A stretch of 64,000 bases of DNA from an uncultured Clostridia bacterium (GTDB taxonomy: Bacteria; Bacillota; Clostridia; Christensenellales; UBA1242), in NCBI GenBank assembly GCA_937896905.1, contig CALBOE010000006.1:382232-446231 (forward strand), given 5' to 3'. Shown in pieces: positions 3,039 through 40,902 of the stretch (position 1 is the first letter of the stretch; every line of letters starts with the position of its first letter). The notes under the pieces are model-generated. The model did no database searches. It was not told the DNA's origin and saw only the letters and a program-made list of their open reading frames with translations. Position numbers and translations under genes: made by a program.

Positions 3039-5204
3039 TTATAAATGTAAAACCCTGTCTTTAATTTCTTGGGTTCTGCCTTGGTTCCAGAATTGGCTTC
3101 CAATGTATCCGCATGTTCTTCTTGCCACGTTCATTTTGCTTTGATCGGTATTTCCGCAATTTGGGCATTTCCAAATAAGTTTGCCATCTCTATCTTCGTC
3201 AATCAAAATTTCTCCGTCGTAGCCACAAACTTGGCAGTAATCTGATTTTGTGTTAAGTTCGGCGTACATAATGTTATCGTAAATGAATTTAATAACTTGC
3301 ATAACGGCTTCTAAGTTGTTTTGCATATTTGGAACTTCAACATAACTAATTGCGCCACCTGCCGAAAGGTCTTGGAATTGGCTTTCGAATTTAAGTTTTG
3401 CAAAGGCATCGATAGGTTCTGTTACGTGCACGTGATAGCTGTTTGTTATGTAGCTTCTATCGGTAACATCTGGAATAATGCCAAATCTTTTTTGCAAGCA
3501 CTTTGCAAATTTATATGTGGTGCTTTCAAGCGGTGTGCCATATAATGCAAATCCAATATTAGTTTGCTTTTTCCATTTTGCAATGGCTGAATTCATGTAT
3601 TTCATAACTTCTAGTGCGAATGGTGTTGCATCTGGGTGAGTGTGAGATTTACCAGTCATATATTTTACGCATTCATAAAGCCCTGCATAGCCCAAGGAAA
3701 TGCTTGAATATCCTCCATAAAGCAATTTATCAATAGTTTCGCCTGGTTTTAAACGGGCAATTGTGCCGTGTTGCCACAAAATTGGAGCAACATCACTTGG
3801 AGTGCCTTTTAGGCGGTTGTGCCTGCACATTAAGGCTTCGAAGCAAAGGTTAAGACGTTCGTCAAACACTTTCCAAAACTTTTTATAGTCGCCACCACTG
3901 CTTAAAGCAACGTCTGGCAAGTTAATTGTAACAACGCCTTGATTAAATCTTCCATAGAATTTATAGTTGCCATTTTCGTCTTTCCAAGGCGCAAGATTGC
4001 TTCGGCAACCCATAACTGGGAAGCAGTTGCCTTCTTTAAGTTCTTTCATTTTCTTTTCGCTGATATAATCTGGAACAAGGCGTTTTGCAGTGCATTTTGC
4101 TGCAAGTTGGGTTAGATAGTAGTATTTGCTGTTTGGGTGGATATTGTCTTCTTCCAAAACATAAATAATTTTTGGGAACGCTGGGGTTATGTAAACTCCC
4201 TTTTCGTTTTTAACGCCTTGATAGCGTTGTTCTAAAGTTTCTTCAATAATAAGTGCTAAATCTTCACGTTCTTGTTCGTTTTTGGCTTCGCCAAGATATA
4301 AAAATTCTGTAACAAAAGGTGCTTGACCATTGGTGGTCATAAGCGTAATAACTTGATATTGTATGGTTTGAACACCACGGTTAATTTCTTTTCTAACCCT
4401 TTCTTCGGTTATTTTGTGAAGCAAATCGTCATCTACACGGCCGGCAGCGGCTAAAAGTTCCCGTTTAACTTCTTTGCGGATTTTTTGACGGCTAACATCA
4501 ACAAATGGTGCAAGGTGAGCTAGTGAAATGCTTTGCCCGCCATATTGGCTTGAAGCTACTTGTGCCACAATTTGAGTTGCAATGTTGCATGCTGTTGAGA
4601 AAGAGTGAGGGCGTTCGATTAAGGTGCTAGAAATTACTGTGCCGTTGTTTAACATATCTTCAAGGTTAACAAGGTCGCAATTGTGCATTCTTTGAGCAAA
4701 GTAATCGGCATCGTGGAAGTGAATTAATCCTTCTTCGTGAGCTTTCCAAATATGATTTGGGAGTAAAAATCTTTTAGTAAGGTCCTTGCTCATTTCGCCA
4801 GCCATATAGTCGCGCTGCACGCTATTTACGGTTGGATTTTTATTAGAATTTTCTTGTTTAATTTCTTCATTTTGGCAATCGATAAGCGAAAGAACTTGAT
4901 TATCGGTTGTGTTTGCTTGGCGTGCCAATTGGCGGTTGTATCTATAGGTGATATAATTTTTGGCAACTTGGTATGCACCTTGTTTCATAATTGCAAATTC
5001 AACATAATCTTGAATTTCTTCCACGCCAACGGCTCTGCCCATTGCTTCGCACTCAGCCACAACTTGCTTAACAATTTCTGCAATTTGGTTTTCGGATAAT
5101 CTTTTGCTTAGTTCGTCAATGCTGTTGTTTGCTTTTGTAACTGCAACTTGAATTTTGGCAGCGTCGAAAACAACTTCTTGACCGTTTCTTTTGATAACTT
5201 TCAT
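3039..5204 (-). CDS. nrdD: Anaerobic ribonucleoside-triphosphate reductase, class III
   Basis: N-terminal ATP-cone 'MKVIKRNGQEVVFDAAKI'. C-terminal Zn ribbon 'CQVCGYDG...CPNCG'. Glycyl-radical motif 'RRTCGYIG'. Confidence 0.95.
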   Translation of the reverse strand: MKVIKRNGQEVVFDAAKIQVAVTKANNSIDELSKRLSENQIAEIVKQVVAECEAMGRAVGVEEIQDYVEFAIMKQGAYQVAKNYITYRYNRQLARQANTTDNQVLSLIDCQNEEIKQENSNKNPTVNSVQRDYMAGEMSKDLTKRFLLPNHIWKAHEEGLIHFHDADYFAQRMHNCDLVNLEDMLNNGTVISSTLIERPHSFSTACNIATQIVAQVASSQYGGQSISLAHLAPFVDVSRQKIRKEVKRELLAAAGRVDDDLLHKITEERVRKEINRGVQTIQYQVITLMTTNGQAPFVTEFLYLGEAKNEQEREDLALIIEETLEQRYQGVKNEKGVYITPAFPKIIYVLEEDNIHPNSKYYYLTQLAAKCTAKRLVPDYISEKKMKELKEGNCFPVMGCRSNLAPWKDENGNYKFYGRFNQGVVTINLPDVALSSGGDYKKFWKVFDERLNLCFEALMCRHNRLKGTPSDVAPILWQHGTIARLKPGETIDKLLYGGYSSISLGYAGLYECVKYMTGKSHTHPDATPFALEVMKYMNSAIAKWKKQTNIGFALYGTPLESTTYKFAKCLQKRFGIIPDVTDRSYITNSYHVHVTEPIDAFAKLKFESQFQDLSAGGAISYVEVPNMQNNLEAVMQVIKFIYDNIMYAELNTKSDYCQVCGYDGEILIDEDRDGKLIWKCPNCGNTDQSKMNVARRTCGYIGSQFWNQGRTQEIKDRVLHL

Positions 5205-5247
5205 TTTTTCTCCCCTTTATTATTTTTATCAAGTAAAATCCTTTTGT

Positions 5248-5276
5248 TTGACTTTACACCTCTATTATACTATAAT
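5248..5276 (+). promoter_or_regulatory. Sigma-70-type promoter for the Crp/Fnr gene
   Basis: TTGACT (5248-5253), 17-nt spacer, TATAAT (5271-5276). Confidence 0.65.
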
Positions 5277-5319
5277 GAAAATGTAAAAAGTGTTGTTTTT
5301 ACAACAAAATGGAGAATTT

Positions 5320-5991
5320 GTGAAATATTTTCAAGAGTTAAGCGAAACAAAAATTTTTAAAGATTCGTTGGAATTTGAGTGCCAAGCAATGATGTATTGT
5401 TTTAAAACAAGGTTCAAAACAGTTGACAAAAATGAAAAAATTATTACGCAGGGCGACGAAATGACCGACGTTGTTTTGCTGGTTAAGGGAAGTGCAATTG
5501 CCCAGAATGTAGATAGATTAGGCAATATTTCTATTTTAATGAGATATAAAAAAGGGGAGGCGTATGGTATAGAATCTGCCTATGCTGGAGATTTGGTTTA
5601 TAAAGAAAGTTTAATTGCCACCGAAAAATGTTTAGTACTATTTTTGAATAAGCACAGAATAATAACTCCTTGCAGCAACCGTTGTAAGCGGCATGATGTG
5701 GTTGTTAAAAATCTTATGAAAATTGTTGCGGAAAACAATTATAAGCTATTAGATAAGCTAACACACATGAGCAAAAAAACAATTAGGGACAAACTTCTCT
5801 CCTATTTGAGTTCGGTTAGCGAAAAGGCGGGTAGTCACTATTTTGAAATTCCGTATAATGTAACCGAACTTGCAAATTATCTTTCTGTGGATAGAAGTGC
5901 GCTTTCTAATGAGCTTAGCAAACTATCAAAAGAAGGGATTATAGACTACGACAAAAAACAATATCGTCTTATTAAAGTTAAAGAATATTAA
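5320..5991 (+). CDS. Crp/Fnr family transcriptional regulator
   Basis: cNMP-binding-like N-domain and C-terminal HTH 'VTELANYLSVDRSALSNELSKLSKEGII'. Start moved to the GTG at 5320, which has GGAGA (5311-5315) upstream. The ORF track begins at 5290. Confidence 0.85.
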   Translation: MKYFQELSETKIFKDSLEFECQAMMYCFKTRFKTVDKNEKIITQGDEMTDVVLLVKGSAIAQNVDRLGNISILMRYKKGEAYGIESAYAGDLVYKESLIATEKCLVLFLNKHRIITPCSNRCKRHDVVVKNLMKIVAENNYKLLDKLTHMSKKTIRDKLLSYLSSVSEKAGSHYFEIPYNVTELANYLSVDRSALSNELSKLSKEGIIDYDKKQYRLIKVKEY

Positions 5992-6058
5992 AAAATGCCA
6001 AATGGCATTTTTTGTTTTGTATGTAGTTGGTTAAACATTTATGATGGTTAATTATTCA

Positions 6059-24232: not shown

Positions 24233-24288
24233 AAAAAAACCTTTAGTTTACGCAAGCAAATGCAAGGCGTTTACTTATAACTAAAGGG
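24233..24288 (-). terminator. Terminator of the disrupted host tRNA-Thr gene
   Basis: Immediately 3' of the tRNA remnant on the minus strand. CCTTTAGTT (24240-24248) pairs with AACTAAAGG (24279-24287), with inner ACGC/GCGT pairing. T7 on the minus strand (A-run 24233-24239). Confidence 0.65.
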
Positions 24289-24296
24289 CGTTTTAA

Positions 24297-24343
24297 TGGA
24301 GCTGATAACGGGAATCGAACCCGTGACCTCCACCTTACCAAGG
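24297..24343 (-). pseudogene. 3' half of a tRNA-Thr(GGU) gene (position 30 to CCA), distal att remnant of the island
   Basis: Minus strand reads CCTTGGTAA-GGTGG-AGGTC-ACGGG-TTCGATT-CCCGT-TATCAGC-T-CCA. No D-arm or 5' acceptor adjoins it. Acceptor strand TATCAGC pairs perfectly with GCTGATA of the 5' halves at 39811-40008. Confidence 0.9.
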
Positions 24344-26452: not shown

Positions 26453-26542
26453 AAGACCTCCTAAAAGTGTTTGTGTTGTACCGTACTTTCAATTCTTTTG
26501 CAAGTGTTTTTTAGTTAAAATTTCACTGTGCGTAGAAAAAGA

Positions 26543-26764
26543 ACATACACTACATACACTTCCTACACTAAAAAGCACACAATTACCTATAAATAAGGCT
26601 AAAACTCAACAAAATGAAACATTATACCAACATACACCTAACATACACTAATATACACTCAACATACACTAAAAAATTAGCAAAAACATGGAAAACAACA
26701 AAGTATCCCAACGCATTTATACACTTATACATAATTACATCAAAAGTGTATGTAGTGTAGGGTG
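26543..26764. repeat. Array of ACATACAC(T)-type 8-9 bp repeats in a divergent intergenic region
   Basis: Direct copies at 26543, 26552, 26562 (CCTACACT), 26630, 26641, 26651 (ATATACAC) and 26662. Inverted copies in AAGTGTATGTAGTGTAGG at about 26744-26761. Confidence 0.8.
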
Positions 26765-34981: not shown

Positions 34982-34984
34982 CAT

Positions 34985-35013
34985 AGAACGGACTAACCAT
35001 CCGTTCTTTTTTT
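34985..35013 (+). terminator. Rho-independent terminator (copy 2 of the repeated hairpin)
   Basis: AGAACGGA (34985-34992) pairs with TCCGTTCT (35000-35007), followed by T7. Near-identical to 31535-31561. Confidence 0.8.
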
Positions 35014-35270
35014 AATGCTGTTTTTTACGAAATTTGGATAAAAAACGAGTTTTGCAACAAAAGTCGATACAATCGTGAGAAACTTTGCAACACTTTTGAA
35101 ACAAAATGGATAACCAAACTCGTATAATATATGTAGGCATACAATTAAAAATTTAGAAAAGCATTTTACAAATTTAAAAATAGAGACAATCTGAGAAAAT
35201 AAGAGACACTCTGATAAGAAATGAGACAACCAAACCTATATAATGATTGTAAGGAATCAAATTGCCGAAG

Positions 35271-35298
35271 AGAGAAGTTAAAAACACTTCTCTTTTTT
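35271..35298 (+). terminator. Orphan rho-independent terminator in non-coding DNA
   Basis: AGAGAAGT (35271-35278) pairs with ACTTCTCT (35286-35293), followed by T6. No ORF lies between it and the previous terminator. Confidence 0.7.
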
Positions 35299-35310
35299 AC
35301 TGAAAAAATA

Positions 35311-35626
35311 GTTTCGAATGGACAAATGCTGTCCGAACGGAATTTATAAAATATTAAAAAATATTTCCTGCTGTAAAAAATGTGTTTACAACGGGGTTAT
35401 TAAAATTTATTTGCAACTTGTTCAAATGGTGAACACATTGGCCTTGTACAATGTTTTCCGATACGACAAATGTTGTCGGAACGGGATTGTTTAAATTGTG
35501 AAAAAATATTCCCGCTATATCAAATGGTGATACAGCGGGCTTGGTAAAATAACAGAAAATTTTATAAAAAAGTTGTAAAAATATGTCCCGTGTGGTCAAA
35601 TGGTGAACACACGGGATTGATAGAAT
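35311..35626 (+). repeat. Six hairpins with a conserved CA-AATGN-TG apex, within ~100-bp degenerate direct repeats
   Basis: Hairpins at 35320-34 (GGACA AATGC TGTCC), 35367-95, 35420-34 (GTTCA AATGG TGAAC), 35464-78 (CGACA AATGT TGTCG), 35511-39 and 35587-615. Confidence 0.85.
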
Positions 35627-35743
35627 GTGGTTACCAATAACAATATTGGTTTTATCGATGGACTGCAGCCGTCGTTAAAATATAGCTAAAGTTAAGAACT
35701 GATCAATCTTAATGTAGGCACAAAATCTAAAAAAGGAGAAAGG

Positions 35744-36403
35744 ATGAGAAATTATATATTTGAATTTGATCAACAAATTGCCTTAAGGTTAGGGCTTAAA
35801 CTTAATGAACTTTTATTTCTAGATTACTTGGCGAAATTTATTAACAGTGGGAGTATGAGATGTAAGTGTATAGAAGGTAAAAGATATTATAGATTAACCT
35901 ACAAAAAGGTAATGGAAGATTTGCCAATTTTGAAAATAAAAGAAAGGCAACTTCGCAACATTATTATTTCGTTAGAAAATAAAGGAATATTACAAAGGTA
36001 TTCTGAGTTGAAAAATGAAATGCATATTTATGTGGATTATGATGTGCTTTTCGGCAACAAATTGCCAGATAAGTTTAACTTGTCGGAAGTTGGCTTCCAC
36101 GATGAAGGAAATGGACTGCTTACAATAGATTATTATGATATTAAAAAAATAAAAATATTAAATAATAGCGCACGCGTGAAAGAAATTGATAAGCAAGAGT
36201 TGTTCAATCATTTATTAGCAAACTTAAAATTGGCGTACGGGGATGTTCTATATAAAGGATTTATTGAAAATAAACTTGATATAGATGAAATAACTGATAC
36301 TTATATTTTGTTTGATATAGGAAATGTCAAAATAGTTGGACAAACTTATGGTGATAAATTTAAGAAAGCATTTGATGACACGATTGAACACTTATTAAAT
36401 TAA
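35744..36403 (+). CDS. Putative replication initiator / winged-helix protein (RepA_N- or DnaD-like N-terminus)
   Basis: 'LNELLFLDYLAKFIN...GKRYYRLTYKKVMEDLPILKIKERQLRNIIISLENKGILQR' follows the RepA_N-type wHTH pattern. AAGGAGAAAGG RBS. Confidence 0.5.
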   Translation: MRNYIFEFDQQIALRLGLKLNELLFLDYLAKFINSGSMRCKCIEGKRYYRLTYKKVMEDLPILKIKERQLRNIIISLENKGILQRYSELKNEMHIYVDYDVLFGNKLPDKFNLSEVGFHDEGNGLLTIDYYDIKKIKILNNSARVKEIDKQELFNHLLANLKLAYGDVLYKGFIENKLDIDEITDTYILFDIGNVKIVGQTYGDKFKKAFDDTIEHLLN

Positions 36404-36897
36404 CAAACCCCCAGGGGCGGTCAAATCTCTAGGCGAAAGGTTTTAAAGAGCGGGCAGGCAGTCGCACGCAAACTTTCGCAAAATCAAAAATCAAAAACGA
36501 AACAAATGAAAGGTTGATAATTGATTATAAATAAATGAAAAATCGATAGTTTTGATTTTTATAATAAATCAAAAAATAATCAAAATTATTCAAAAGATGT
36601 TGCTCGTCGGCAATTTTATGTTTTGTAAAGCCGTTATTTATGCGTTTTGAAAAACTTTATCAATTTTGGATAGATTGCCGATGAGAATATGTTTCGTGGC
36701 TTTAATAAAGCGTTTTGAAAGGAATTTGGCTAATCATAACAATATTTCAAGAATACAAAGTTTAAAAGATACAAAATTACAAAGTTACAAGATTACAAGA
36801 AAACAATTTAGAAAAATTTAAAATTAACACTGGACTTTAAAGGCAACATGCGGTTTAATGTGTGTTGCCTAAGGTTTAGTGATATCAAGGAGAAAGA
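36404..36897. repeat. Repeat-dense non-coding region (candidate origin / recombination-directionality control region)
   Basis: Relatively GC-rich stem GCGAAAG (36441-47) / CTTTCGC (36473-79). At least 7 (A/T)TCAAAA words in both orientations across 36484-36596. Inverted CTCGTCGGCAAT / ATTGCCGATGAG. Roughly 40-bp imperfect direct repeat ending GCGTTTTGAAA, two copies. TTACAA(A)G(A) 8-bp tandem at 36776-36800. Hairpin GGCAACA/TGTTGCC around 36841-36869. Confidence 0.7.
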
Positions 36898-37157: not shown

Positions 37158-38360
37158 ATGGCAAAAAGGAAAGCAACACGCCGTGGAAACGGAGAGGGTT
37201 CAATATGGCAAAGACCAGATGGTAGATGGCTTGGACAAATATCACTTGGTTACGATGAAGAAGGAAAACTTAAAAGAAAGACATTTTATGGAAAAACAAG
37301 AAGTGAAGTTTCGCTTAAAATGACATCCGAATTGAGTTATATAATGAAAAACGGATATCAAACAGTGTGTAAAGAAAAATTTGAAACAATATTTATGGAG
37401 TGGTTGTTGGTGTTTAAAAGGAACACAGTTCAAGCAAGAACATTTGAAAGAATACTAAGCAATGCAAAAACACATGTTATACCAGAACTTGGTAAATATG
37501 GTTTAGATGAAATCAATATGCAAGCCATACAAAAAATGATAAACAGATTATACCTAAAAGAGTTGTCTCTAGATGTGATTAAGAAATCAAAGCAAATAGT
37601 TGGACAGTTCTTTGAATATGCAATAGATAACGAAATGGCAATTAAAAATCCAACAGCAAAAATAAAAATTCAAAAAAGAGAGAAGCATATTGAAGATGCA
37701 CAAAGATACAAGGCAATTCCACCAGATAAAAGAGATGAGTTTATAAAAGCATTAGATAGTCAAACAATTCTCAAACCAATGTGCTTGGTTATGATGTGCT
37801 GTGGGCTAAGAATTGGAGAAACATTAGCACTAACTTGGAGAGATGTGGATATTGAAAGAAAGTTAATACATATAAACAGAGCGATAACAGTAGATGTTAA
37901 GATGGATAAATTAGGAAATGTGCTATCAAGAAAAACAGTTATAGGCGACACTAAAACAGCGTGTTCGGTAAGAATTGTGCCTGTGCCAGATAGTTTAATT
38001 CCTGTCCTTGAAGCTTGGAAAGAAGATAGATGGATTGAGGGCAAGAAACACAATGTTGACTTGCTTGCACCAGATAGCCTTGTGTTTGGCAAATATGATG
38101 GTGGAATTAGAACTTATAGAAACACACAAAACATATTCGATAGGTTCTGCAAACAAAATGGATTTGATAAACTAGGATTACACATACACGGACTTAGACA
38201 AACATATTCAAATATGCTATTCGAAAAAAGTGTAAATCCAAAAGTTATTCAAGGCCTACTTGGCCACAAAGACGTAAAGACAACAATAATGAACTACAAC
38301 TCAGTGGATAAATCATACTTCGATAGAATTTCAAACTTAATAAACGAACAATTTAAATAA
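37158..38360 (+). CDS. int: Tyrosine recombinase / phage-type integrase with N-terminal arm-binding domain
   Basis: 'GNGEGSIWQRPDGRWLGQISLGYDEEGKLKRKTFYGKT' arm-type domain. Catalytic 'GLRIGETLALTWRDVD', 'HGLRQTYSNMLF', 'LLGHKDVKTTIMNY'. Confidence 0.93.
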   Translation: MAKRKATRRGNGEGSIWQRPDGRWLGQISLGYDEEGKLKRKTFYGKTRSEVSLKMTSELSYIMKNGYQTVCKEKFETIFMEWLLVFKRNTVQARTFERILSNAKTHVIPELGKYGLDEINMQAIQKMINRLYLKELSLDVIKKSKQIVGQFFEYAIDNEMAIKNPTAKIKIQKREKHIEDAQRYKAIPPDKRDEFIKALDSQTILKPMCLVMMCCGLRIGETLALTWRDVDIERKLIHINRAITVDVKMDKLGNVLSRKTVIGDTKTACSVRIVPVPDSLIPVLEAWKEDRWIEGKKHNVDLLAPDSLVFGKYDGGIRTYRNTQNIFDRFCKQNGFDKLGLHIHGLRQTYSNMLFEKSVNPKVIQGLLGHKDVKTTIMNYNSVDKSYFDRISNLINEQFK

Positions 38361-39662: not shown

Positions 39663-39691
39663 AAAAAATCCCCTATATTATAGGGGTTTTT
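39663..39691. terminator. Bidirectional terminator directly 3' of the island tRNA-Thr
   Basis: CCCCTATA/TATAGGGG palindrome (39670-39686) flanked by A6 and T5. Confidence 0.75.
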
Positions 39692-39693
39692 CG

Positions 39694-39769
39694 TGGAGCT
39701 TATGACGGGATTCGAACCCGTGACCTCAGCCTTACCAAGGCTGTGCGCTACCTGCTGCGCCACATAAGC
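39694..39769 (-). tRNA. tRNA-Thr (anticodon GGU), complete, CCA encoded
   Basis: Hand-folded cloverleaf: GCTTATG-TG-GCGC-AGCAGGTA-GCGC-A-CAGCC-TTGGTAA-GGCTG-AGGTC-ACGGG-TTCGAAT-CCCGT-CATAAGC-T-CCA. All stems are Watson-Crick. Confidence 0.93.
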
Positions 39770-40008
39770 ATATTGAAATTTTGATTGTTGGGATTTCTGC
39801 CAGGTAGACATTACCAAGGTGACGCTCTACCGACTGAGCCATATCAGCGTATTAAGATTTTTAATTGTTGGAATTTTAGCCAGGTAGACATTACCAAGGT
39901 GACGCTCTACCGACTGAGCCATATCAGCGTATTAAGATTTTTAATTGTTGGAATTTTAGCCAGGTAGACATTACCAAGGTGACGCTCTACCGACTGAGCC
40001 ATATCAGC
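39770..40008 (-). repeat. Three 80-bp tandem units, each the first 38 nt of a tRNA-Thr(GGU) plus a ~42-nt spacer
   Basis: 5' halves at 39811-39848, 39891-39928 and 39971-40008 are identical (minus strand GCTGATATGGCTCAGTCGGTAGAGCGTCACCTTGGTAA). Each is followed by TGTCTACCTGGC..., not by a tRNA 3' half. The spacer next to the full tRNA (39770-39810) is a diverged copy. Confidence 0.92.
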
Positions 40009-40028
40009 ATTTATTCAAATACCTTTAC

Positions 40029-40700: not shown

Positions 40701-40902
40701 TTATAAAGATGTTGACGGAAAGAGTAGGCACAAAAAGGGCTTAAAGTGAGATAAGGATAGTGAGAACTTATTAGTACCGTTGTGTTGAAAGACGCTCCCG
40801 AGTCGTAGTTTAATATAAAGTGGTCATAAGTTTTATGGCAAATTAGGTGGCACCGCGGTTTATAATCGTCCTAATGCGTTTTGGCAGTTAGGGCGTTTTT
40901 TA
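40701..40902 (+). promoter_or_regulatory. T-box riboswitch leader (probable Asp specifier GAC) with terminator
   Basis: Stem I elements 'GAAAGAGTAG' and 'AGTGAGA'. Specifier-loop candidate 'TTGAAAGACG'. T-box sequence 'AAATTAGGTGGCACCGCGG' (40840-40858). Terminator CGTCCTAA (40867-74) / TTAGGGCG (40888-95) followed by T6. Confidence 0.85.

Follow-up and report, generated by a model that had tools for sequence, protein, structure and literature searches.

We analyzed a window of 64,000 bp (the whole stretch examined) from contig CALBOE010000006.1 of an uncultured Clostridia bacterium, in which six short hairpin units form an array directly upstream of the gene for a 219-amino acid initiator-like protein, here termed p219. 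The array is a conserved feature under selection and tied to the p219 gene, as judged from three lines of evidence: the arms of the hairpins covary, the units are linked to p219 homologues exclusively and in a single orientation, and they are retained between loci whose 4-fold degenerate sites are saturated. Its kind is probably that of a repeat-based control region beside an initiator gene. Our tentative interpretation, which we hold with less than even confidence, is that the array constitutes a reiterated promoter/hairpin control region of the p219 gene, and not an origin of replication.

The initial annotation of this DNA had described six stem-loops around a common apex, and a check of the sequence located all of them where they had been placed. 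The exact apex CAAATGNTG occurs in five copies on the plus strand within 283 bp (35323-35605), and the sixth hairpin (35367-35396) carries the variant apex AAAAATGTG. In the whole window the apex was matched 19 times, compared to an expectation of 5.0 ± 2.1, and none of 100 shuffles reached this number. The array region folds far better than its dinucleotide shuffles on both the plus strand (z = -6.2) and the minus strand (z = -7.2). The degenerate direct repeats of about 100 bp reported by the same annotation are also real: a 95-nt repeat recurs at a spacing of 144 nt with 71% identity, and a further repeat of 36 nt recurs at 174 nt with 78% identity. These spacings bring units 1-2 into register with units 4-5 and unit 3 with unit 6, and thus the six units correspond to two rounds of a three-unit block. 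The gene-free character of the surrounding block (34982-35743, 762 bp) likewise holds, with only short open reading frames (ORFs) of 42-81 amino acids overlapping it; two of those crossing the block gave nothing above cut-off in a Pfam scan. There is no tRNA within the block and no Rfam family at gathering score, and Rfam 15 at a permissive threshold (E up to 10) gave only spurious matches in the array region. Phage and plasmid collections searched by BLASTN with the 761-bp block returned no match, and a literature search on the apex sequence found nothing relevant. The array matched no catalogued RNA or DNA element.

A genome scan using one genome per species identified 31 loci with p219 homologues, all of them in metagenome-assembled genomes of uncultured gut Clostridia. 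Array units are present in 23 of the 30 assessable related genome loci and in four metagenome loci, with copy numbers from 1 to 14 per array-bearing locus; the exact apex was found in 1-9 copies upstream of the p219 homologue in most of the 31 loci, always on the gene strand. The proximal unit is separated from the ATG of p219 by 125-277 nt in nearly all array loci. An ungapped alignment of 89 distinct units from 28 loci was used to assess the 12 stem pairs, of which 10 covary. The fraction of paired cells was 83.4%, compared to 61% after shuffling and 26-48% when the partner was slid, and changes on both sides of the stem were observed in 287 cells versus 115 expected from shuffling. RNAalifold predicts the identical hairpin unaided. 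Stems differ between neighboring units of one array, and orthologous units in different loci show compensated double changes (e.g., gtagtac/gtaccac versus gtagtga/tcaccac). These results support the earlier suggestion, made on the window alone, that the stems vary in a compensatory manner and that selection acts on a hairpin with a specific apex.

We also carried out the check proposed with that suggestion, a covariance model built from homologous islands, in which both the apex and the pairing are conserved. The model gave 97 matches in 420 kb (the window plus the loci), all 97 on the gene strand and all within ~1 kb upstream of a p219 homologue. Run on unrelated viral DNA (747 kb), the model detected none, and no unit outside the p219-upstream position was found in the ~1.2 Mb searched. 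A protein-independent DNA pattern scan of metagenomes recovered four true arrays, and in all four cases a p219 homologue follows directly downstream. The placement just upstream of a Rep-like gene, first noticed in the window, is therefore a tight linkage across relatives. A scan of IMG/VR viral contigs with a strict unit pattern and a search of the same contigs for p219 were both empty, giving no sign of phage that carry the unit boxes. A looser viral scan (apex, N15 and TAnAAT) produced chance single matches only, as judged by the covariance model, and its sole double match (L088) was rejected as a coding repeat.

In their size (~45-57 nt) and tandem order, the units are reminiscent of the boxB modules found in pneumococcal BOX elements. 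We nevertheless see almost no chance that the array represents selfish repeats of the REP, BOX or MITE type scattered through the genome, or palindromes that cluster by accident in AT-rich DNA. Dispersed repeats of the REP/BIME, BOX and MITE types are refuted by the absence of any copy elsewhere in the window, the 31 loci or the 747 kb of viral DNA, and the units hold one position and one orientation. A chance cluster is excluded by the enrichment of the apex over shuffles and by the covariation of the stems.

Each unit is a module of 45-57 bp with a 10-12-bp hairpin, and its anatomy includes three elements that were absent from the initial annotation: a TAnAAT hexamer at a fixed distance of 15 nt on the 3' side of every apex, an A5T tract at a fixed 15-20 nt on the 5' side, and a conserved CCG/CGG where the stem begins. 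With the hexamer numbered as -12 to -7, and counts taken from 64 non-redundant units, the module reads A5-T-n-TTT (-56 to -47), CCG (-45 to -43), the apex CA-AATGN-TG (-36 to -28), CGG (-21 to -19), T at -15 (58/64 units), G at -14 (38/64 units) and TAnAAT; the CCG and CGG form the conserved base of the stem. The A residues at -56 to -52 are present in 43-56 of the 64 units and the T residues at -49 to -47 in 39-56. Within the hexamer, conservation is lowest at -10, a trait of sigma-A -10 elements as well. T-12, A-11 and T-7 served as search criteria for the 64-unit set, but in the unbiased alignment all three reach at least 90% conservation; the positions conserved at 90% or more in the 89-unit alignment are T52, A53, A55 and T57. 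The distance between apex and hexamer stays constant even in units with the drifted apexes AAAGATGTG, CAGATGGTG and AAAGGGCTT. The sequence at -36 to -28 is CAAATGGTG, which does not match a TTGACA -35 hexamer.

The consensus of the bacterial UP element is AAAWWTWTTTT at about -57 to -47, and the A5-T-n-TTT tract resembles it in both sequence and position. The layout of the unit thus reads as an UP element and an extended -10 promoter lacking a -35 hexamer, with the hairpin apex in the -35 position. A standard host promoter is available for comparison in the window itself, where TTGACA-17-TATAAT precedes a T-box leader (94.5 bits; 40703-40876) ahead of an aspartyl-tRNA synthetase gene.

The six units of the window follow this layout on the plus strand, with spacings of 44-76 nt. 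Unit 1 (35296-35355; covariance-model match of 54.6 bits) has its hairpin at 35313-35341 with the apex CAAATGCTG at 35323-35331, flanked by an A-tract at 35304-35309 and a -10-like TAAAAT at 35347-35352. Unit 2 (35349-35408), the variant, forms the hairpin CCTGCTGTAAA-AAATGTG-TTTACAACGGGG at 35367-35396, followed by a -10-like TAAAAT at 35401-35406; it is the counterpart of the units with apex AAAGATGTG in relatives, and the variant unit was found in L004, L008, L011, L016 and L022. Units 3 and 4 overlap at the compact spacing of 44 nt. Unit 3 (35396-35455; 46.3 bits) has the hairpin TGTTCA-AATGG-TGAACA at 35419-35435 and a TG-extended TACAAT at 35447-35452, and unit 4 (35440-35499) has its hairpin at 35457-35485, the apex CAAATGTTG at 35467-35475 and the hexamer TTAAAT at 35491-35496. 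Unit 5 (35494-35553; 67.1 bits) consists of the hairpin CCCGCTATATCA-AATGG-TGATACAGCGGG at 35511-35539 and TGGTAAAAT at 35542-35550. Unit 6 (35570-35629; 64.1 bits), the proximal one, has its hairpin at 35586-35616 followed by TGATAGAAT at 35618-35626, and is a candidate promoter of the p219 gene.

The array is bordered by further transcription-related features. An intrinsic terminator on the plus strand (35270-35298; GAGAGAAGT...ACTTCTC plus a T-run) lies directly 5' of unit 1, and equivalent terminators precede the first unit in L004, L006, L008, L010, L011, L016 and L152. Transcription of the array must therefore start inside the array, which the terminator is predicted to insulate from upstream transcription. 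On the other side, between the array and p219, the plus strand carries a structured leader of three hairpins. Hairpin 1 (35633-35654; ACCAATA-ACAA-TATTGGT followed by TTTT) is attenuator-like and is conserved in relatives as AACCAA...TTGGTTTTA; the hexamer of the last unit, located 6-15 nt before it in most loci, is the nearest -10-like element. Hairpin 2 (35656-35674; CGATGG-ACTGCAG-CCGTCG) has a covarying stem, and in hairpin 3 (35692-35712; TTAAGA-ACTGATCAA-TCTTAA) 5 of the 6 pairs covary. For hairpins 2 and 3 together, 91% of cells are paired and 30 double changes are observed versus 8.9 expected, a result that none of 500 shuffles reached. All wobble pairs of hairpin 2 are G.U or U.G on the plus strand, which indicates that a plus-strand RNA starts upstream of this hairpin. 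A candidate antisense (countertranscript) promoter, TTGATC-16-TATATT, lies on the minus strand inside the leader (35679-35706) and is directed back into the array. The site (TTGATC-N16/17-TATATT) is conserved in 25 array-bearing loci and found in none of the array-less loci. A transcript initiated there would cross hairpins 2 and 1 into the last unit, which on the minus strand presents a GC-based hairpin and then a T-rich run; in the window, the opposite strand of unit 6 would be placed to terminate such a candidate antisense RNA.

This arrangement raises the question of whether all units act as a stack of minus-strand terminators, in which hairpins with GC-rich bases followed by AAAnAUUUUU would stop leftward or antisense transcription into the cargo defense genes. 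The GC-rich stem bases, the minus-strand T-run and the conserved antisense promoter directed into the array agree with this explanation, as does unit 5, whose minus strand was classified as terminator-like. We nevertheless regard it as highly improbable: the terminator scan passed none of the six units on the plus strand and only that one on the minus strand, and the minus-strand T-run begins 5-6 nt past the stem, which is non-canonical. Moreover, terminators require neither an invariant loop nor a fixed TAnAAT on the opposite strand, and one or two of them would be sufficient, not up to 14.

Several minor features were observed around the array and leader. Between the HamB terminator and the array (35040-35299) there are two TATAAT hexamers, each located after AACCAAAC (35110-35128 and 35226-35244), and a 20-bp repeat in 2.7 copies (35176-35229); the segment looks like a small operator-controlled transcription unit or a small RNA gene, as far as its motifs tell. 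Relatives have a GTGTGACAC palindrome at the matching position. The motif ATGTAGGCA is found in the window at 35131 and 35712, as well as within the arrays of at least eight loci, and is positioned just past -10-like hexamers and just 5' of the p219 ribosome-binding site. In L004-L017, L021 and L153, a short ORF (MKIKIIQKEHVIY...) with its own ribosome-binding site overlaps the start of p219; it is absent in the window, and may represent a leader peptide or a case of translational coupling.

The covarying stems are also compatible with a multi-hairpin RNA that acts as a sponge or decoy, a role raised in the initial annotation. The p219 mRNA could carry it as a long leader, or overlapping mini-genes could each yield a hairpin RNA of ~45 nt. 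The identical AAUGG loops would then bind a protein or a complementary CCAUU loop, for instance on an antisense RNA, with the A-rich flanks acting as single-stranded linkers or as internal promoters. Besides the covariation around an invariant loop, this possibility draws on the distinct stems of adjacent units, as expected if each hairpin folds alone, and on the mismatch or wobble present in most stems, which is better tolerated by RNA than by an extruded cruciform. The adjoining leader hairpins share the same design and belong to a plus-strand RNA, and the conserved antisense promoter could supply the complementary loop. Several observations make us doubt it, although it is a real possibility. 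No Rfam family is matched even when E values up to 10 are admitted, GGA and other known sponge motifs are missing from the loops, and G.U exceeds A.C by only 1.6-fold in non-redundant units. The terminator on the 5' side of the array means that internal promoters would still be needed, and a sponge leaves the fixed spacing of the UP-like and extended -10-like elements unexplained.

The p219 protein (35744-36403, plus strand) belongs to an unnamed family without a Pfam domain, comprising 111 clusters at 90% identity and ~1,500 remote relatives (E ≤ 0.001). Pfam and NCBIfam searches with p219 and 10 longer remote relatives gave generic winged-helix noise only, and a sequence search of the PDB with p219 gave no match. 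The AlphaFold model (mean predicted local distance difference test score of 74) consists of an N-terminal winged helix (residues 1-100), a linker (111-132) that is very conserved and modeled at low confidence, and a C-terminal alpha/beta domain. The best PDB matches of the N-terminal domain are the N-terminal domains of staphylococcal RepA_N initiators (4PQL, 4PT7, 5KBJ); the DnaD N-domain (2V79) scored lower, among generic winged-helix regulators. Several of the best viral matches of p219 are named replication initiator or replisome organizer. The protein itself matches PHROG 428 ('replication initiation protein') weakly, and its remote relatives match PHROGs annotated as replication initiation protein, O-like initiator, replisome organizer and DnaD-like helicase loader. 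A tblastn search located the N-domain in plasmid-encoded proteins of Clostridioides and Clostridium that are annotated 'conserved phage C-terminal domain'; the C. difficile plasmid that was inspected carries this gene directly after cI/cro-like helix-turn-helix (HTH) regulator genes. The 'Rep-like' label that p219 had received is thereby supported at the level of an origin-binding domain.

An initiator-like neighbor makes an origin function of the array an obvious question. In seven loci (L001-L003, L018-L020 and L026) p219 is kept without a single unit, and the array is thus dispensable in these relatives. In L001-L003, L018 and L019, an ORF of 83-87 amino acids is translationally coupled to p219 (near 4800-6000); except in L018, it is preceded by a protein of 256-281 amino acids, whose L002 representative shows a weak match to Phage_antitermQ and to ECF sigma region 4. 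Judging from its position, the coupled-ORF module appears to be an alternative control module in place of the array. Just 3' of p219, 26 of 33 loci have a region of ATCAAAA iterons and AT-rich sequence, including the array-less L001-L003 and L018, with 3-6 direct copies and 1 inverted copy compared to ~0.3 expected. In the window this region (36404-36625) starts with a GC-rich block, GGGGCGGTCAAATCTCTAG..., which is invariant and folds no better than shuffles, and continues with ATCAAAA repeats, four in direct and one in inverted orientation, that flank an AT-rich spacer. An extra insert of ~77 nt is seen within the downstream region of L002 and L011. We consider 36404-36625 the best candidate for the origin of replication of the island.

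By the same evidence, the role of replication origin that had been offered for the array is not supported: p219 persists without units in seven loci, the copy number ranges from 1 to 14, and an iteron region lies downstream. An iteron-type origin (oriV) is expected in every replicon that uses the cognate initiator, and the seven array-less loci depart from this; it is also expected to contain near-identical 17-22-bp repeats with an AT-rich region, whereas the units here measure 45-57 bp and have variable arms. The related suggestion of single-strand initiation hairpins is unsupported as well. The hairpins are orientation-specific, as hairpins of a single-strand origin would be (97/97 on the gene strand), but Pfam scans of the island ORFs found no HUH Rep, with no Rep_1, Rep_2, Rep_trans or relaxase among them.

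An accessory replication element, with sites bound by the initiator as extruded hairpins or on single-stranded DNA, is a separate proposal. It could act as a second origin, enhance replication as P4 crr does, control copy number in the manner of the P1 incA array, or provide start sites for a primosome or the lagging strand. P1 and F have iteron arrays on both sides of their rep genes, and here too a repeat array with AT-rich flanks adjoins an initiator-like gene. In addition, GGTCAAAT is present both in unit 6 of the window and in the invariant block downstream of p219, and GTCAAAT in the proximal units of many relatives. On balance we judge this proposal unlikely. Seven p219-bearing relatives lack the array, and four of these keep the downstream iterons; the arms vary within one array, so that one protein cannot read them; and mismatched stems extrude poorly as cruciforms. 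Furthermore, the island was found to contain no HUH Rep, relaxase or primase for a single-stranded stage, and the spacings in the window follow no simple helical phasing.

Our tentative interpretation as a control region of the initiator gene can be formulated as follows. Each module would be an active promoter without a -35 hexamer, and the tandem modules would fire towards p219 through the three-hairpin leader, in which the attenuator-like hairpin may act, while the conserved antisense promoter in the leader would oppose them. The unit hairpins would fold in the nested sense transcripts, and the proximal hairpin, read on the other strand, would end the antisense RNA. A single factor, with p219 itself as the most plausible candidate, could dock on the invariant apex of all modules. 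Additional modules would titrate this apex-binding factor and in this way set the initiator level and the copy number.

A number of observations weigh against this interpretation. A two-hexamer promoter scan flags none of the six units. T, the consensus base at -10, is rare (4/64 units), and thus the hexamer could be something other than a -10 element. Wobble pairs provide weak strand evidence (36 G.T versus 22 A.C in 64 clusters), and the excess of G.T over A.C could also reflect mutational skew. A promoter or operator acting at the DNA level needs no covarying arms, so an RNA-level or extruded-DNA role must be added, and the retention of up to 14 promoters has no explanation from the tested facts. 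The putative recognition helix of p219, KERQ[IL]RN, is invariant with or without the array, which indicates that the primary target of p219 is probably the downstream region; the apex and that region have in common only CAAAT or GGTCAAAT.

A bolder version is improbable in our estimation. In it, the units would be overlapping mini-genes or promoter modules of a new, structure-dependent class, in which the fixed-apex hairpin replaces the -35 element. The transcript started by each module would fold into the hairpin of the next module. The array, self-contained, would both make and sense a family of small hairpin RNAs, setting the initiator level in mobile defense islands.

Other candidate functions were tried and rejected. 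A type III toxin-antitoxin system (ToxI-like) disagrees with the differing stems, with the initiator-like p219, which has no toxin-family match, and with the array-less relatives that keep p219. The loop ATG is in frame with the hexamer TAA/TAG in ~84% of units; seven-codon mini-ORFs were dropped because they have no ribosome-binding site and leave the covarying arms unexplained. Capture of tRNA ends by UGGN was dropped because G34 is variable, sites for IHF, LexA, Spo0A and sigma-54 because the consensus sequences do not fit, and integron attC because there are no cassettes.

The control region proposed here has partial counterparts in known systems. The arrangement resembles P1 (incC/incA) and F (incB/incC), where the initiator gene separates a repeat array from the origin repeats. 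Replication of P1 and F does not require the accessory array, their rep promoter lies within repeats, and titration of the initiator controls copy number. Their iterons, however, are near-identical direct repeats of 19-22 bp that are read as double-stranded DNA, whereas the 45-57-bp units of the window have arms that covary within and between arrays and promoter-like elements in every unit, and their binding by p219 is putative. Inc18 plasmids (pIP501, pAMbeta1) and pT181 resemble the proposed control region in that a sense promoter is followed by a structured leader with a terminator-like hairpin, the rep gene and an origin just downstream, together with an antisense promoter inside the leader. 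They differ in having one sense promoter in place of a reiterated module, and p219 is not a homologue of RepR/RepE or RepC. Neither p219 nor the units belong to the families of these plasmid systems, P1 and F included; the attenuation known from these plasmids may have a parallel in the window, to judge from the leader hairpin.

At the level of single units, T4 middle promoters combine a MotA box at -30 with a sigma-70 -10 element, and N4 early promoters are recognized through a DNA hairpin with a specific loop. Like them, the units combine a good -10-like sequence with a conserved box near -30 and lack a -35 hexamer; in contrast, the island has no MotA/AsiA-like protein or N4-type polymerase, and its modules form tandem arrays upstream of a single gene. 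The CsrB/RsmZ sponge RNAs and lambda nut boxB also present repeated hairpins with different stems and one conserved loop, but the loops of the window are not GGA or GNRA-like, they have no Rfam match, and they are set between fixed promoter-like flanks. The PLE phage satellites of Vibrio encode a RepA_N-type initiator and have an intergenic iteron origin, whose plain direct repeats are bound by RepA and required for replication (PMC7145576). The likeness lies in an integrative, defense-associated island with a winged-helix initiator that structurally resembles staphylococcal RepA_N proteins and a repeat-bearing non-coding region beside its gene (PMC7145576). The window array differs from it in being hairpin-based and absent in some relatives, and there is no sequence homology to PLE RepA.

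If the proposed control region is correct, it would represent a previously undescribed wiring of a replication-initiator control region, in which a hairpin-bearing, promoter-like module is reiterated up to 14 times. It would also give a named role to the currently unannotated p219 family, and offer a compact test case for DNA versus RNA action of hairpins at a promoter -35 position. The covariance model provides a sharp sequence and structure signature for finding such islands, which are integrated at tRNA genes of uncultured gut Clostridia and carry defense systems (type I restriction-modification, Hachiman and a weak HEPN-like gene).

The island of the window is 15.4 kb long. Its ends are marked by two copies, at 24282-24343 and 39679-39740, of a 62-nt direct repeat (84% identity) that corresponds to the 3' part of tRNA-Thr. 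Its genes encode a GNAT protein, HTH-Fic, T5orf172, a large N6-methylase with an S subunit, and HamA/HamB (Hachiman); after the 762-bp gap and p219 follow an 85-amino acid excisionase-like ORF, a tyrosine integrase and a 365-amino acid ORF with a weak, sub-threshold HEPN-like match. The integrase and excisionase-like pair (37158-38360) is ~26% identical to the pair of L002 (7486-8877), whereas pairs of the L002 type share 72-98% identity across almost all other loci. Set against the conserved p219, array and downstream region, this divergence indicates that the integration module has been exchanged in modular fashion. In every locus, the excisionase-like gene has upstream of it (36745-36800 in the window) a run of short repeats of the (A/G)ATTACAAR type and then a long inverted repeat, CACTGGACTT...; these may serve as arm-type sites of the integrase or as sites bound by the excisionase. 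The intact tRNA-Thr gene (39694-39769, minus strand) is adjoined at 39779-40018 by three 80-nt sequences in tandem, 86-100% identical, each a copy of the 5' two-thirds of tRNA-Thr(GGU). They resemble traces left by repeated integration and excision at the attachment site. Finally, ACATACAC(T) is repeated at least seven times in the non-coding segment upstream of the T5orf172 gene (26535-26760), and the segment ends with an inverted copy.

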